DNA of 63,346 bases, counting the filler, from Rhabdomonas costata (Eukaryota), in the NCBI GenBank assembly GCA_019059605.1. It is 53 parts of 53 records of this genome, joined end to end, with 100 filler letters (N's around TTAATTAATTAA, not from the genome) between each part and the next. Parts side by side here need not be neighbours in the genome. Positions count along the whole stretch, not along the records: positions 62,250 to 63,346 come from JAHMHO010028799.1; 52 more parts are not named here. One strand, given 5' to 3'. The translations under genes and the position numbers were made by a program. The notes beneath the pieces were generated by a model. The model was given only the letters and a program-made list of their open reading frames with translations, ran no database searches and had not been told where the DNA came from. The stretch's first letter is position 1. The number at the start of each line of letters is the position of its first letter. This document shows, one piece after another, positions 26,098-63,346 of the stretch.

Positions 26098-29000
26098 ACC
26101 AAGCGTGGAACAGGAGCAGCCGGACCATCAATACCGTAAAGGTATCAGTTGAATTGAAATGGATCAGATTTTTAATGAATCAACTCCGTATTTTTTCTTG
26201 TTGAAAAATAATGCATCATCAAAACAATATTCCCACACAACNNNNNNNNNNNNNNNNNNNNNNNNNNNNNNNNNNNNNNNNNNNNTTAATTAATTAANNN
26301 NNNNNNNNNNNNNNNNNNNNNNNNNNNNNNNNNNNNNNNNNGTGTTGGTGTGTTTGGGGTGGGTTGGAAACCCGGAGTGCACGGTTTGCACAAGGGGCAT
26401 GTACCTGGCCAGAACTAAGACGTCCTTGACAATGACTGGCATGAGGATCAAGCTGTCGAAACGCAAATATTTCGTTCGAAAAGGAAGATGAGGGGCACTG
26501 AACACAGAGAAAAGCGTACAACCAGCACTTCGCGCGAGAACGCGAGAACGGCGCTGGAGACTGCCACTTCGGGGCGCCACACAGAAACTCACACAGCAGC
26601 ACTCGCAGATACGCCGCCGCCCACAAGGGGCTCAAGCACACCTCAACTTTGACCTTCGAAGAAGCAATCCATCGCCCCCGGCACCGCGTGGATCGTGCTG
26701 TACCATTGTAAGAAAACCCCATCACCACAACGACCACAACACCGACCGCCACCACTAATCAAAGGGAGCATCGTCCATGGAAACGTGAAAGGTTTTCAAA
26801 AGCCTTTTTCGGTGAAAACGTGCTCATTAAAGACAAGCTTCAACAATCGTGCCTGTTCTTACGGCCACAGGCTCTCGGCTGTGCGAAAACAATAAAAATT
26901 GGCAAAATCCTGGGTGAGGAACATCTTGACCACTTTTTTGTGTGAGTTAATATGCTGGACCCAGAACATGGCCCAGCAGTTCCCCATGAAAAGGAAGTGT
27001 GCCTTCCAAACCCCCGGTACACGCCGTAAATATCCTTTGCAACTGAAACCGCACAACAACAGGGTGCACACACAAAAAACTTGATCCCAAGGTTCCTAGC
27101 GATTCTTGCCACCTGCCGCAATGCCGCGCAGGGGCATTCATCCTCATTCTTCAGAGAAAAGCAATACAGGAGGGGCCAGGGAGTGGGACAGGGGGCACCG
27201 GGCACGTACAAGGGCGACCAGTAAACTCAATAGGAAAACAACACAAAGGCAAAAAGTAAGACGACAAAACAATCGCAGAGTGGTCAAATTACGAATTAGA
27301 CCTAATTAGACTGAATTAGAAACATCTCACACGACAACAGGCGCGTTATGGCGCAGTCGCAGAGGCGACACGGGCGCTCCCCGGGCGCAGTGCAGGTACC
27401 CAACACCGCCGGAGCATCTCGTTGTACCCCAACCCCACNNNNNNNNNNNNNNNNNNNNNNNNNNNNNNNNNNNNNNNNNNNNTTAATTAATTAANNNNNN
27501 NNNNNNNNNNNNNNNNNNNNNNNNNNNNNNNNNNNNNNTACACTATGTTTTGTTGTTAGAATGGTCGCAATTTTTATTACTGTTTTTTGGTTTTTTCATC
27601 ACAAAATTATTCTTATTCGTCCTTTTGTTGACCACGAGGCCAGCGAAACAAGCATAAAAACATAAGAAAGTTATAGTGTTAGCGTTTTAGAGTGCTGCAT
27701 GGTGTAAAGCAAATCTAAAACTGAAAAAATATATGTGCTCTTCTTAAACATTGAGACGCATAAACTTGGATCAAAATACAACGACGCCATAATGGCAAGG
27801 ATTGTTTGAGATTGGATGGAATGGTAGTCACCAAGTTGAACAATGGTAACGATATATGCATTCAACAAGATACTATCAAAGGTAACTTGACAATGTAGTC
27901 ATTTGTTTTTTTGTGTTATCCATGTGCAGTCGAAGTAGCGGGACACAAACCGATAATGTGTGGTTTGGGCCACTTCACGTTGTGCAATCTTTCGTATAGA
28001 TGCGTAGAAAAGAACGAAAAGCACTTCACAGAGACTTTTGAGGAAGCACCAAATCTCAAATTAGATGAGAATCATGCCCACAACAGTGGATTAAAGACGC
28101 ATAACGTCGTCACAATCAACTGTGTAGAACGTATCTTGATTCTTGCACGTTACAGCATATGTGTTACGTGTTACAGTTACTCACGTAGCATGTTTGCGTA
28201 TTGGTACTCGCTACTTTTAACACCTAACTTGTTTCTATGGAAGACAGATTTGTAATATATCACAGCTTTTTCACGTCTCATAATCAACAGAGGTAGACAC
28301 GTTTTCATTCTGTACGCTGTCATATGAAGAGCGTGCAAGACCATCAACAGCAAACTGAGCCATCGGGAAATACATCCCGTTTTGCTGTAATAAATATTGC
28401 ATTTCAATGCTATAAGAACGTCTTACGGAAAGGTATACATGACGTGAATAAAAATACATTTTCAATTGAATGCCATTGCTTTTAGATACTGCAAACTTCG
28501 CTGCTGTGCAGTAGGATATAGTTCCAGTGGCAGCGCATGGACTAGAAAATGGACTGTTCTGTGACTTAGAGCACATTGTTCTAGAGAACAAACCTCCCAA
28601 AACATCGCCGACTAAGATAACTGTTACAAACAACCNNNNNNNNNNNNNNNNNNNNNNNNNNNNNNNNNNNNNNNNNNNNTTAATTAATTAANNNNNNNNN
28701 NNNNNNNNNNNNNNNNNNNNNNNNNNNNNNNNNNNGGTGTTGTGGCAGCCGCAGAGCTGGAACAAGAGCAGCAACAAGCAGCAGCAGCAGCTGCTGCTGC
28801 TGCCTCCATGTCTTCTTCACGGAAAGCCGGTGCGACCCAGTTGTGAAAGGTTGCCCACGAACAGTTTTCCAGTGCAGTGCAGCTGCGTCTGTGTTGGCCG
28901 TCTTGTGGTTCCTTGGGCCGCAATCTCGTGTGAGAATGGCGTGTGCAGATGGGTTGCAAGGAAGGCTCTTCTCCGCACGAGGGATGCATGGCACCACGGC

Positions 29001-60243: not shown

Positions 60244-61618
60244 TATCTAATAATTTCTCTATTTCAAGAAGAACGCTGCTTTTATTGTGTGCAGGAAAAA
60301 ACCTGTTCTGACTTTTCCATCGTTTTTATCAAATCTGAGGATGCAGAGTTGGGGGAGGGGGTCTAACACCGATGTCGAGCAGTGTTAGGCACTCACTTAT
60401 CCTGCGCAACCTTCACCCCCACAAGTCAAATCGAACACAACTCCAACCTCAGCAGTCCAATGTCGTGGCCCAGCAGCCACAGTAAATGAGTAAATGGAGG
60501 GGACCTCTCCCAAACACACCTGACCCATATTCCCCAAATGAAAAATTCCTGCTCCCCCCTCCCTCGATCTCATGAGATGTGGCCGTTCTTGATGGACTTC
60601 GCACGGCAGGGCCCCGCGGAGGTCATGAAGGGGATCCCACTGAAAGTGGCGACACCACTCTCGTCCGTCTTCAGCCCGTCCAGCACCGGCTGAAACACCT
60701 TCACGATCAATCACGGTCAAGCGGTTAGCACCCAAGCAAACGGGAAATGTGTCATCTCAAGACAAGGGCAACGATTGACTTTCCCTCTTGACCCGACCCT
60801 GGCAAACTAGGACAAGTCCTAAACACAAACTTGGAGTATCACCAATCGAAAAAACGATTTTTGATACTCAGAACAATATCGGTTGACACTCGAGAAGCCA
60901 AACTTTCAGCCAGCAAAAGAACCAGAACCAGAAAGGGTGCACAACCACACAANNNNNNNNNNNNNNNNNNNNNNNNNNNNNNNNNNNNNNNNNNNNTTAA
61001 TTAATTAANNNNNNNNNNNNNNNNNNNNNNNNNNNNNNNNNNNNNNNNNNNNTTTTTTGGGGAGGAGGGATAGATATGGTACCTCACAGAGGTAAAAACA
61101 AACGCAACAAATCAATTATCAAATACGCCGCACCACAGTCACGCACCCTGCAACAACAAAAAAACAAAATATCTCGGCAATAGCTTCGATCACAGACATG
61201 TATCAGCACACGAGAACATCCAAGCACACTTCTTAAACACATGGTTGACAGCGTCCGATAATTGGCGATGCTTTTTTTCAGCTCTTCTTTGCTTTGCCAG
61301 TACCAGAAGCTGGCCCAAATTCGTCATGAATGGTATATGAATGGTATATGAATGGTATATATATACAAAACACGAAGGCACAAGACGAGTTTGGACACCA
61401 TCCATTAATCCGTCTCTGCTCATCAAGTCAAAGCATAATTGACAGAAAAACAAGTTGCGAAGGCTTTGCATTACATATTCGTCTTCACGACGCAACTGGG
61501 TTCGGATAAATGCAGTGGGAAGAACGTCACTGTTGCGAAGAAGTTCCTTTGCTTTTGAGAATCCGGTGTGCGGGAACTGCGCAAAAACCACGACCATCAC
61601 CCGCGGACATGGACATAC

Positions 61619-61732
61619 AATTTCCACATCCTCAAAGCCGGTCAGCACCAGGGTCTTCAGCAATTCACAGCCGATTCCTCCAGCGCCCACCACGAGAACA
61701 CGGGACGTGCTGGTTGAAAAAGAGGAGAGCAT
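61619..61732 (-). CDS. UBA2: SUMO-activating enzyme subunit 2 (UBA2/SAE2-like E1), first exon
   Basis: MLSSFSTSTSRVLVVGAGGIGCELLKTLVLTGFEDVEI, then a GTATGT donor. GAGGIGCELLKxLVLTGF is the UBA2 form of the ThiF motif. Confidence 0.85.
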
Positions 61733-62249: not shown

Positions 62250-62725
62250 ACATCTACAAAGCGATGCTCGATGTTGTGCGCTTTTAAAACTTCTTTTAGC
62301 TGTTTATTAATATACTCTTTTCCGTTGTCAGTAGTTATAATTTTTGGGTTATAGTGTTTGATTATGGTTTTCATTCCCTCTGTGACTGTTTCACTTTCCT
62401 TTGTTTTTAATGGAACAACAAAGGCTTTTCTCGTGAAGATATCTATTGCAACAAGTAAATATTTGAAATATGAATTTGTAGTTGAAATGTTCGAGAAATC
62501 CATCAAATCAATCTGCAGGTGCTCATGTGGTTCGAAGCTTGTTATTGGAAAATATTTCTTTGGTTTCACAGCAGGTTTCAAGAGTTGTGCTGTTTCCTGC
62601 TTACCTATAAAATCTTGAACTTGCTTTAATGTTATTCCGTCTTTTTTAACCTTCTGAAATAATTTGTTTGCCGAAATTAAACCAATCTCTGGGTTATAAT
62701 ATATCTCATTCAGTTTTTGGTCCAT
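62250..62725 (-). CDS. Retroviral-like (rve) integrase, Polinton/Maverick/virophage type; 3' truncated
   Basis: MDQKLNEIYYNP...SANKLFQ......ITLKQVQDFI.KQET.QL.K N-terminus typical of Maverick integrases. QIDLMD, YLLVAIDIFTRKAFVVPLKTK and TDNGKEY supply the first two catalytic Asp. Confidence 0.92.
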
Positions 62726-62735
62726 ATAATTACAC

Positions 62736-63346
62736 TCATAAATTTCTTTTTGAGGTATTGCACGATAGACAACATAATTTGCAGTTGGATTTTGAATGGT
62801 AATCACTATTATTTATTCTATATACCGTTAGATTGCTATTTACTTTTGCGTCGACAAGCTCCATATCAAAATATTCTCCACATACATAACATTTAAACTC
62901 TTGGTCTGTTATCCATTGACGGTCTATATAGTCTTCAATGACTGCGTTCTTGTACGTAAGCTCATTGTGTTTGTTCTTTTTTATTCTACCTGCCGTAATA
63001 TCTTGAGTAACGTAGTTTTCAATCTTAAGGTCAAAGTATTGTCGAAATTTACACTTTTTTAAAATTTGACATTCTTTTTGCGAGTGTTCAAAAATTGTCA
63101 CCTGATCAAAATTGACGCATCTAGTAACTGCCGTATATATCCATCGTCTATCTGCATAAGCTATATTTGAATCAAATATGGTGTAGGGTTCACATATTGT
63201 CATTCCTTGGGCGGAATGAGCTGTACTACAGTAAGGCAAAGCCATATATTTTAGCTGGTCATAGTTGATAGTCATTTCATTGTCGTTGTTAATGCTTTTA
63301 ATTCTAATAATAAAATCGTCCTCAACTTTCGTAATTTTCAGAATCT
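62736..63346 (-). CDS. SF1B (Pif1/RecD-like) helicase C-terminus fused to an HNH-like Zn-finger nuclease domain; 5' truncated
   Basis: Frame is open to the window end. YCSTAHSAQGMT (motif V), WIYTAVTR (motif VI), then CYVC...LTVYRINNSDYHSKSNCKLCCLSCNTSK. Confidence 0.88.
   Translation of the reverse strand, partial: ILKITKVEDDFIIRIKSINNDNEMTINYDQLKYMALPYCSTAHSAQGMTICEPYTIFDSNIAYADRRWIYTAVTRCVNFDQVTIFEHSQKECQILKKCKFRQYFDLKIENYVTQDITAGRIKKNKHNELTYKNAVIEDYIDRQWITDQEFKCYVCGEYFDMELVDAKVNSNLTVYRINNSDYHSKSNCKLCCLSCNTSKRNL

Follow-up and report, generated by a model that had tools for sequence, protein, structure and literature searches.

Tlr1-like helicases, as the cited accounts describe them, are pPolB-S1H fusions of polinton-like viruses (PLVs), Tlr1 and transpovirons that carry a C-terminal HNH or GIY-YIG nuclease (PMC5499653, PMC11161782), with a vOTU domain described upstream of the palm domain (PMC11161782). 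Tlr1 itself, a PLV variant from Tetrahymena thermophila, is reported to encode an RVE integrase and a Tlr1-like helicase with a C-terminal homing endonuclease (PMC5499653, PMC11161782). In the PLVs of Bigelowiella natans, an HNH domain is placed at the C-terminus of an SF1 helicase-containing protein (PMC5499653). Among PLVs whose Tlr1-like helicase bears HNH, most are described as being without an RVE integrase and often as having a tyrosine recombinase (PMC5499653, PMC11161782). For cryptophyte PLVs (Rhodomonas lacustris cluster C1; Cryptomonas), the account cited gives an SF1 helicase with a C-terminal GIY-YIG (~1,000-1,400 aa) as well as HNH located N-terminal to the helicase, and this 2025 paper already notes helicase-integrase adjacency in these viruses (PMC12220804). 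Mimivirid transpovirons (~7 kb) are described with a pPolB-S1H helicase (PMC5499653, PMC7031253), and the cited accounts mention no integrase for them.

The contig analyzed here is the last one in the window (i.e., the whole stretch of 63,346 nt under analysis). It resembles Tlr1 in combining an rve integrase with a Tlr1-like helicase that ends in a nuclease, but this nuclease is of the HNH type while that of Tlr1 is, by published description, GIY-YIG; moreover, Tlr1 is described with MCP, mCP and packaging ATPase, whereas none of these was seen on our contig. The C-terminal position of HNH is shared with the B. natans PLVs and, as far as descriptions can be compared, differs from the N-terminal position in cryptophyte PLVs, which recurs in one metagenomic locus (L029). 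Unlike most PLVs with an HNH-bearing helicase, the contig has an rve integrase 10 nt downstream. Its helicase is of the same family as that of transpovirons and the contig sizes of its clade resemble the transpoviron size, but the helicase has an integrase as neighbor. An rve integrase adjoining a replication gene is also found in Polintons/Mavericks and mavirus-type virophages; these however encode a stand-alone pPolB, while the relatives of our contig encode a pPolB-S1H-HNH fusion. Polintons/Mavericks sensu stricto are recognized by a stand-alone pPolB with an exonuclease domain plus an rve integrase; in these relatives a palm-S1H-HNH fusion lies upstream of the integrase.

The contig is probably part of a module for replication and integration that belongs to a Tlr1-type polinton-like element of the phylum Preplasmiviricota. 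The Polinton/PLV affiliation of the original prediction is supported by the Tlr1-like type of the helicase, by the pPolB, A32 and protease genes of an element with a related integrase (L001), and by the A32 genes found with distant relatives of the helicase. Its suggestion of a possibly undescribed lineage was not substantiated: both the pPolB-S1H-HNH architecture and the helicase-integrase adjacency are already in print. Nor did its alternative label of virophage find support, as neither a capsid gene nor a link to a giant virus was seen. The contig adds a further case to a known class of mobile virus-like elements, with a gene pair known from protist PLVs: one more sighting of the Tlr1-type module (pPolB-S1H-nuclease, then rve integrase) and, as matters stand, an ordinary fragment of a known element type.

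Layout of the gene pair

The window consists of ~53 contigs of 1,095-1,100 nt, with spacers of N44-TTAATTAATTAA-N44 between them. The contig under study (62250-63346; 1,097 nt) has both of its edges inside genes. Its GC content of 0.326 is the window minimum, as compared with 0.379-0.609 in the other 52 contigs, and the two co-oriented ORFs, 10 nt apart, are both intact (Table 1); the predicted AT-richness relative to the other contigs and the predicted undisrupted ORF pair were thus both recovered. The genes are both encoded on the minus strand, a detail which the original prediction did not give. As to the intron-richness predicted for the other contigs, a spot check showed one in which a ThiF match ended after ORF residues 8-39.

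Table 1. Positions of genes, predicted domains and motif residues on the contig, counted along the window
Feature	Position	Strand	Basis or remark
Helicase-HNH ORF, last 202 codons	62739..63344	-	5' end beyond contig edge; translation P0002
Predicted C-terminal part of SF1 helicase core	63087..63344	-	motif residues, weak Pfam UvrD_C_2, PHROG
SF1 motif, residues 40-47	63204-63227	-	conserved in relatives
SF1 motif, residues 71-76	63117-63134	-	conserved in relatives
Predicted long helix and HNH (His-Me finger) nuclease-like domain	62739..63047	-	PHROG, fold match, conserved residues
First CxxC pair, HNH-like domain	62880-62891	-	conserved in relatives
Tyr-175, HNH-like domain	within 62808-62822	-	alignment position
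Second CxxC pair, HNH-like domain	within 62757-62771	-	conserved in relatives
TGA stop codon, helicase-HNH gene	62736..62738	-	sequence
Intergenic spacer, 10 nt	62726..62735	-	sequence
rve integrase ORF, first 158 codons	62250..62725	-	3' end beyond contig edge; Pfam rve
Integrase ATG	62723-62725	-	sequence
Integrase N-terminal domain (~60 residues) and most of catalytic core	62250..62725	-	Pfam, relatives
Integrase Asp-73	62507-62509	-	catalytic core
Integrase Asp-133	62327-62329	-	catalytic core

At the same gene boundary, the spacers in four relatives (L009, L013, L015 and L018) were 13-34 nt long, the listed ORFs of L008 seemed to overlap by 4 nt, and in L011 and P0014 the helicase and integrase genes were without an intervening stop. 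A fusion of the two window genes through TGA read as a sense codon was ruled out: stop and spacer together make 13 nt, so the two frames differ. Compared with their relatives, both window ORFs were saturated at synonymous sites (pS 0.73-0.87) while pN was low (0.14-0.26). These values indicate purifying selection and, together with the Pfam rve match (E 2.8e-17) and homologues at up to 78% identity, show that neither ORF is a chance frame.

The helicase-nuclease gene and its full-length relatives

The original prediction of a helicase-HNH gene was borne out in both parts. For the helicase part, Pfam matched UvrD_C_2 at P0002 residues 38-75, though weakly (E 6.7e-4, below the curated cut-off), and the SF1 motif residues were near-invariant in the alignments of relatives (A2 and A3); it is from this weak match and from the intact SF1 motifs, common to full-length relatives, that the helicase identity follows. 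Furthermore, a PHROG search matched this part to a Dda-like helicase, and the family profile matched RecD2 (2.2e-9) and RecD (1.6e-8) among PDB sequences.

For the nuclease part, the HNH identity follows from PHROG matches of the C-terminus (endonuclease VII, 5e-6; HNH, 0.013), two conserved CxxC pairs and a fold match to PacI. Eight residues were invariant across relatives (C152, C155, R176, H183, N187, C192, C195 and N196), forming the pattern CxxC...R...H...N...CxxCN, and the window has Tyr where nine of ten relatives have Asp. The model of P0002 reached pLDDT >90 across residues 100-200. Its HNH-like part found the PacI HNH nuclease as best match in VIA-align (Z 6.5, rmsd 3.2, 82 aligned residues), a modest fold match given that Z <8 may reflect a common structural arrangement; Gme HNH, McrA, ZRANB3 HNH, retron HNH, IscB/Cas9 HNH and Cap5 followed at Z 2.7-4.2. 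The family profile also matched McrA and PacI weakly in the PDB (E 0.4-1). A Foldseek search of the whole 202-residue model against the PDB returned nothing at E <= 0.001; the integrases topping its list (E ~0.06-0.3, low TM-scores) were set aside as noise, the model being two-part and partly of low confidence. The window fragment is thus predicted to comprise the C-terminal part of an SF1 helicase followed by a C-terminal HNH-type nuclease domain.

P0002 was 60-70% identical to the C-termini of the helicase genes in L008, L009, L010 and L011, and its identity to a set of proteins 413-1,483 aa long was 58-72%. Full-length relatives were 1,154-1,483 aa long (P0082, 1,154; P0056, 1,284; P0248, 1,302; P0247, 1,483). 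P0056, from locus L018, was 42% identical to the window fragment, relatives at 58-72% being available, and its residues 185-800 were modelled from a 65-row alignment at pLDDT 86.5. In a fold search of this region against the PDB, all nine matches at E <= 0.001 were phi29 DNA polymerase (best, 1.9e-9). In BFVD the best match was H6WBE3 (E 7.2e-17), an unnamed viral protein of 999 aa, and the second-best was the mavirus DNA polymerase (4.8e-10), with other protein-primed polymerases also among the matches.

In alignment A4, six residues were invariant or near-invariant, and they appear to fit the PolB motifs: D320 as motif A; K437, N441 and G445 as motif B; T553 and D554 as motif C. Upstream of these palm motifs, Cys C3 was near-invariant and His H132 invariant. 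The polymerase was detected by the fold search alone: an HMM profile of the full-length family found no polymerase among PDB sequences, and Pfam gave nothing but a weak C2H2 finger on the N-terminal 640 residues of P0056. The full-length relatives, as modelled in P0056, carry a pPolB palm domain N-terminal to the SF1 helicase and HNH. As the window holds the last 202 residues, the polymerase part of its own gene is predicted from these relatives; judged by its sequence, the window helicase belongs to the Tlr1-like (pPolB-S1H-HNH) type described in the literature.

By analogy with published families, the element would be a linear dsDNA. Its fusion protein would consist of, in order, a variable N-terminus, a vOTU-like region, a pPolB palm domain without exonuclease, the SF1 helicase and the C-terminal HNH, and would replicate the element, with the helicase unwinding and the palm domain polymerizing, probably in a protein-primed manner. 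The integrase would then insert the element into a cellular genome, or possibly into a giant-virus genome. The two genes would be kept adjacent and are probably co-expressed.

The integrase and the recurring gene pair

That the downstream gene encodes an rve integrase, as predicted, was confirmed: Pfam placed the rve domain at residues 66-156, and relatives of 351 aa were found at up to 78% identity (E 7.8e-74). The third catalytic residue lies beyond the contig edge; in all clade relatives that reach this position it is Asp, 36 residues past D133, whereas in L001 it is Glu. The family profile matched the integrases of PFV, HTLV and Ty3, among others. A C-terminal chromodomain is a feature of Polinton/Maverick-type integrases; for P0003, a full-length relative, Pfam gave the rve match alone.

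In IMG/VR, the integrase alignment A1 found a sole relative, L001, at 32% identity. L001 is a 15-kb element in which the integrase is immediately preceded by pPolB; it also encodes an A32 ATPase and an adenain-like protease, along with further ORFs. IMG/VR scans with P0001, P0056 and an alignment of the GIY-clade integrases found nothing, and no close relative of either window protein was seen in that collection. Searched against 185,579 prokaryote species, each represented by a single genome, A1 gave a single match of 24% identity in a cyanobacterial MAG, and a bacterial origin was rejected on this ground. The protein atlas returned unnamed rve clusters only, one of them, at rank 17, labelled Nucleocytoviricota. 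In the collections searched, the exact clade appears only as metagenomic contigs.

With the integrase alignment, 54 JGI loci were collected, 22 of which had a helicase-nuclease gene directly upstream of the integrase. This gene was of the HNH type in nine loci (L007-L013, L015 and L018) and of the GIY-YIG type in 12 (including L027 and L042); in one (L029), HNH was N-terminal to the helicase. An integrase tree was built from 51 rows, all unnamed, without named Polinton, Ginger or LTR references and with L011 left out. The integrase of our contig fell into a 17-row clade (SH-aLRT 99) nested in a 29-row clade (98) that contained all eight of the HNH-context integrases present in the tree, while the GIY-YIG-context integrases formed a separate 10-row clade (100). 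Thus the integrase clade co-segregates with the nuclease type of the helicase, and the gene pair occurs widely across metagenomes as two forms that evolve together, one with HNH and one with GIY-YIG.

Neither the 1,097-nt contig nor its 18 closest loci (L007-L024) yielded a capsid, penton, packaging ATPase, TIR or TSD. A search for TIRs in L018, L015, L008, L006, L027, L029 and L042 gave no terminal pair, and the 52 other window contigs had no match to any ORF of L001-L060. The original prediction had named a lack of linked capsid and ATPase genes as evidence against itself; none was found, but all the sequence examined was short.

Integration, gene content and origin

The element may be integrated in the nuclear DNA of the eukaryote that was sampled, a view we hold tentatively. 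Integrated RVE-encoding PLVs are described with TIRs and with TSDs of 5-6 bp (PMC12220804, PMC7805220), and several metagenomic relatives lie next to GC-richer DNA or are damaged: i) in L007, a 47-residue HNH remnant and an intact integrase sit in an AT-rich stretch (21-32% GC), whose flanks have 40-52% GC and hold a BED zinc-finger ORF; ii) in L010 the helicase gene is reduced to its last 115 codons, directly beside a 58-62% GC flank; iii) L011 and L012 are frameshifted, and L012 also has an in-frame stop. By such damage and flanks, four of the six closest loci (L007-L012) resemble decaying insertions, but disruptions in metagenomic contigs may also stem from errors in sequencing or assembly, or from chimeric joins. 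The window contig, on the other hand, is without a host junction and has both ORFs intact, its GC content is lower than that of all the other window contigs, and the flanks of L007, L009 and L010 have no match anywhere in the window. If the contig is integrated in the sampled organism, a host would be named for a clade otherwise seen, in the collections searched, as metagenomic contigs.

Rather unlikely is a small (~5-7 kb) capsid-less derivative, in essence the pPolB-S1H-HNH gene and the integrase together with some small ORFs; the element would then be transpoviron-like, having kept or gained an integrase, rather than a virus that encodes a capsid. In the three closest helicase clusters, all listed contigs were <= 7.4 kb, many with the full-length gene at 5.1-7.4 kb (for example 5390, 5336, 5869, 5107, 5883, 5417, 5517 and 5201 nt; 6063, 6992, 5887, 6240 and 6752 nt; 5130, 5800 and 5359 nt), and the integrase clusters had the same ceiling (6207 and 7356 nt). 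The helicase and integrase genes alone take up 5.0-5.5 kb. None of the 18 closest loci had a capsid or ATPase gene, IMG/VR was without members of the window's clade, and transpovirons of ~7 kb are described with the same helicase family (PMC5499653, PMC7031253). Short contigs are however usual in metagenomes. Moreover L018 (5.8 kb) was without a TIR (end-to-end alignment score of 19, where shuffled sequence gave a median of 20), and an ORF crosses its 5' edge, so its element must exceed 5.8 kb. Relatives of the helicase also occur on larger contigs: P0197, 47% identical to the window fragment, sits on a contig of 15,991 nt, and the more distant L002, L003 and L005 are IMG/VR contigs of 17-19 kb that encode an A32-like ATPase.

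A broader form of this proposal, which we regard as unlikely, takes the clade as a whole to be a family of small (~5-7 kb) capsid-less elements able to replicate and integrate by themselves, built essentially from a pPolB-S1H-HNH gene and an rve integrase of the D,D,D type. They would be transpovirons with an integrase or minimal PLV-derived self-synthesizing transposons, common in freshwater or other protist communities and leaving decaying copies in GC-richer hosts. Were the clade capsid-less and 5-7 kb in size, it would link PLVs, transpovirons and self-synthesizing transposons.

It is improbable that the contig came from the genome of a co-sampled giant virus (Nucleocytoviricota) or from an episome carried by such a virus. 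Many elements associated with giant viruses are typically low in GC, and the low GC of the contig counts in this direction. Moreover L005 and L006 bear 'GVMAG' in their IMG/VR names, members of the distant helicase cluster P0026 (~30% identity to P0014) lie on contigs of 132-685 kb, and the Nucleocytoviricota label appears at rank 17 in the protein-atlas list. Yet bin labels such as GVMAG are weak evidence, the 132-685 kb contigs belong to distant relatives and could be viral or eukaryotic, and neither the contig nor the window, which was searched with PLV and locus proteins, gave a giant-virus gene.

It is very improbable that the integrase comes from another rve element (Ginger, LTR retrotransposon or bacterial IS) and is paired incidentally with the helicase. 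In favor of this, the rve core is common to these elements, the family profile also picks up the integrases of Ty3 and retroviruses, and there are weak matches to PHROG transposase families. Against it, no RT or RNase H was seen beside any close relative, prokaryote genomes gave the 24%-identity match only, the helicase-integrase order recurs in 22 of the 54 loci, and the integrase clades follow the nuclease type.

Gene content of the AT-rich terminal contig

The window comprises ~53 contigs of 1,095-1,100 nt each, divided by spacers (N44-TTAATTAATTAA-N44), and represents several loci rather than one. The contig at 62250-63346 had the lowest GC content (0.326, versus 0.379-0.609 for the other 52), in agreement with the original prediction of an AT-rich contig carrying two co-oriented ORFs 10 nt apart, an arrangement that was likewise confirmed. 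Between these genes and their relatives, pS was 0.73-0.87 (saturated) and pN 0.14-0.26; thus both genes evolved under constraint.

Gene layout of the terminal contig
Feature	Position	Strand	Remark
Helicase-HNH ORF (P0002)	63344 to 62739	minus	202 codons, open at contig end
Stop codon (TGA) of helicase-HNH ORF	62736-62738	minus	
Intergenic spacer	62726-62735	minus	10 nt
Start codon (ATG) of integrase ORF	62723-62725	minus	
Integrase ORF (P0001)	from ATG (62723-62725) to other contig end (62250)	minus	158 codons

The upstream fragment, P0002, matched Pfam UvrD_C_2 weakly (under the curated cut-off) and, also weakly, the Dda-like helicase and endonuclease VII/HNH entries of PHROG. Its helicase motifs are those near-invariant among the full-length relatives, whose profile matched RecD2 and RecD. 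When P0002 was modelled, pLDDT exceeded 90 across the final 100 residues. Foldseek returned zero matches to the whole model at E <= 0.001; a wider structural aligner ranked PacI, an HNH restriction enzyme, first (Z 6.5, rmsd 3.2, 82 residues), followed at Z 2.7-4.2 by Gme HNH, McrA, ZRANB3 HNH, retron HNH, IscB/Cas9 HNH domains and Cap5. Because a Z below 8 can reflect a common arrangement, the fold match lends moderate support to a predicted HNH identity for the C-terminal domain, and the invariant two-CxxC pattern and the PHROG matches are concordant with it. Within this domain (residues 175-179, 62808-62822, minus) the window carries Tyr-175, adjoining an invariant Arg, in place of the Asp of 9/10 aligned relatives and the Asn of the tenth, which could be either a tolerated change or early decay.

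The downstream fragment, P0001, matched Pfam rve at E 2.8e-17, and 17 longer relatives were found in the protein collection, the closest being 334-368 aa in length and up to 78% identical across all 158 residues. A profile of integrase relatives matched the PFV, HTLV, MMTV, Ty3 and other integrases in PDB. Catalytic D73 and D133 are both present, while the third catalytic position falls past the contig end at 62250. In all HNH-linked clade relatives covering that position it is Asp, 36 residues after D133 (residue 169 of the full-length relative P0003), as it is in loci L028, L029 and L041; Glu occupies it in L001 (an IMG/VR contig), the GIY-YIG-linked clade and other outliers. In one relative, P0012, Ala replaces the first catalytic Asp.

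The complete helicase gene

Full-length helicase relatives are 1,154-1,483 aa long, and their alignment revealed conserved PolB motif A, B and C-like residues upstream of the helicase, with a Cys/His pair farther upstream. Residues 185-800 of P0056, a relative of 1,284 aa, were used as query against 1.84 billion cluster representatives, and 643 clusters reached E <= 0.001; among the best 150 of these, lengths of 1,200-1,500 aa predominated. A model of the same region from 65 alignment rows (pLDDT 86.5) matched phi29 DNA polymerase in 9/9 PDB matches at E <= 0.001 (best 1.9e-9); among viral models, a 999-aa protein ranked first (7.2e-17), ahead of mavirus DNA polymerase (4.8e-10) and numerous further protein-primed polymerases. 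This polymerase model rests on P0056, which is just 42% identical to the window's fragment, closer full-length relatives being at 58-60%.

Such an architecture matches the published one of the "Tlr1-like helicases", which Krupovic, Yutin and Koonin (2016) defined for polinton-like viruses (PLVs), Tlr1 elements and transpovirons: a polymerisation domain of protein-primed DNA polymerase (pPolB) plus an SF1 helicase (S1H), with a C-terminal HNH in PLVs and GIY-YIG in Tlr1 (PMC5499653). A 2024 PNAS study refined it to TP-vOTU-palm-S1H, predicted an active palm domain, and described Tlr1 as additionally encoding an rve integrase (RVE-INT; PMC11161782). The predicted kind of element, polinton-like and integrating, was upheld.

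In the P0247 cluster, the 1,483-aa helicase gene is broken near one site in several independent contigs (~481 aa + ~905-920 aa), which could be a recurrent frameshift, an intron/insert, or a genuine split gene.

The helicase-integrase pair in metagenomes

With the integrase alignment as query, 54 loci were retrieved from JGI metagenome contigs, each <=5.8 kb. An HNH-type helicase gene ends just upstream of the integrase in nine of them (L007-L013, L015 and L018), and a GIY-YIG-type helicase lies upstream in 12, nine identified by Pfam (L027, L032, L039, L042, L043, L044, L048, L051 and L056) and three added by tblastn (L035, L047 and L057). One locus, L029, has HNH N-terminal to the helicase core, and in most of the remaining 32 the upstream sequence is too short. 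Upstream of the integrase, L014, L017 and L019 have in common an ORF without known identity, L020, L023 and L024 carry a 267-aa ORF, and L025 encodes an A32-like ATPase two ORFs away.

The integrase tree contained 51 rows, fragmentary or frameshifted integrases (L011, L023, L031, L034, L035, L040, L043, L046-L048, L051-L054, L056, L057, L059 and L060) being excluded. The window's integrase fell inside a 17-row clade (SH-aLRT 99) nested in a 29-row clade (98); the latter contains 8/8 HNH-context rows of the tree, the ninth HNH locus being the excluded L011. GIY-YIG-context integrases formed their own 10-row clade (SH-aLRT 100). Integrase lineage and helicase nuclease type therefore travel together. 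The helicase-integrase pair forms a conserved module.

A similar helicase-integrase adjacency is described for cryptophyte PLVs, in which, however, HNH is N-terminal to the helicase, whereas the window's is C-terminal (PMC12220804). The pPolB-S1H architecture, both nuclease variants (HNH and GIY-YIG), the co-occurrence of an RVE integrase in Tlr1 and the adjacency are already published, so the window's pair adds to a known kind of element. The suggestions of an endogenous element, of a virophage and of a possibly undescribed lineage were not substantiated.

Several features of individual loci were also observed. In L011 and P0014 no stop separates the helicase and integrase genes, and the integrase portion is then frameshifted or shortened. 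Immediately 3' of the integrase, and co-oriented with it, L011:1576-1899, L019:1312-1641 and L017:1322-1645 each carry a small ORF of ~107 aa (40% identity over 95 residues between L011 and L019; no Pfam match in the three). At L009:2256-2557, 3' of the integrase, a ~150-nt unit occurs in two tandem copies (94% identical), and GC climbs to 38-42%. In L020:1-2819 and L023:1-2931, whose metagenome prefixes differ, the sequence at the contig start recurs as a direct repeat at its end, the two copies lying exactly 2,676 nt apart, thus indicating a circular or tandem 2.7-kb unit. This unit encodes a 357-aa rve integrase, sharing ~40% identity with that of the window, and two further ORFs of 105 aa and 267 aa, the latter without a Pfam match; helicase is absent.

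Virus, integrated copy or small element

In a less probable reading, the clade would consist of transpoviron relatives of 5-7 kb that carry an integrase but lack capsid genes: i) none of the 39 contigs listed for the three closest helicase clusters exceeds 7.4 kb; ii) contigs with a full-length helicase gene are mostly 5.1-7.4 kb, and the gene pair needs 5.0-5.5 kb; iii) a capsid gene is on none of the close loci; iv) the clade is missing from IMG/VR. However, L018 (5.8 kb) is without TIR and an ORF runs off its 5' end, and P0197 (47% identity) is on a 16-kb contig.

Alternatively, the element may be a capsid-encoding PLV. The single integrase relative in IMG/VR, L001 (15,015 nt; 32% identity), encodes pPolB directly upstream of the integrase, A32 ATPase, adenain-like protease, D12 methyltransferase and large unannotated ORFs; moreover, L002, L003 and L005 (helicase 26-28% identity) are 17-19 kb contigs with A32 ATPase.

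The clade may also include endogenous copies, as decay-like features (truncation, frameshift or stop) were found in 4/6 closest loci: L007:1-2455 holds an AT-rich island, enclosed by flanks of 40-52% GC (the downstream one carrying a BED zinc-finger ORF), that retains 47 residues of the HNH part alongside an intact integrase; in L010:1-1355 the helicase is reduced to its last 115 codons and abuts a flank of 58-62% GC; L011:3-1560 is frameshifted; and L012:2-994 has a stop in frame in the HNH part plus an integrase frameshift. These disruptions could, however, be assembly errors or chimeras, and L007 and L010 look like either truncated insertions in cellular genomes or chimeric contigs. In the window, contig 62250-63346 contains no host junction, and the other 52 contigs matched none of the ORFs of the retrieved loci.

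A bacterial source is unlikely, since the sole match among prokaryote genomes (one each for 185,579 species) was just 24% identical. One cluster member bears an NCBI label of alphaproteobacterial MAG, which is taken as a binning label and not as evidence of origin.

L004:10545-16005, a region of a 66-kb IMG/VR contig, may be a decayed integrated element: a helicase of the Tlr1-like family is divided between two ORFs, P-loop NTPase fragments are nearby, and an rve integrase fragment follows ~2 kb downstream in the same orientation.

Elsewhere in the window, contig 27539-28635 is second in AT-richness (GC 0.379); its ORFs are all short (<=120 aa), and comparison with the PLV locus proteins gave no match. 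The ORF at 61190-61732 (minus) matched the ThiF family only at residues 8-39, with similarity lost beyond, a pattern consistent with an exon that gives way to an intron, in a eukaryotic E1-like gene.
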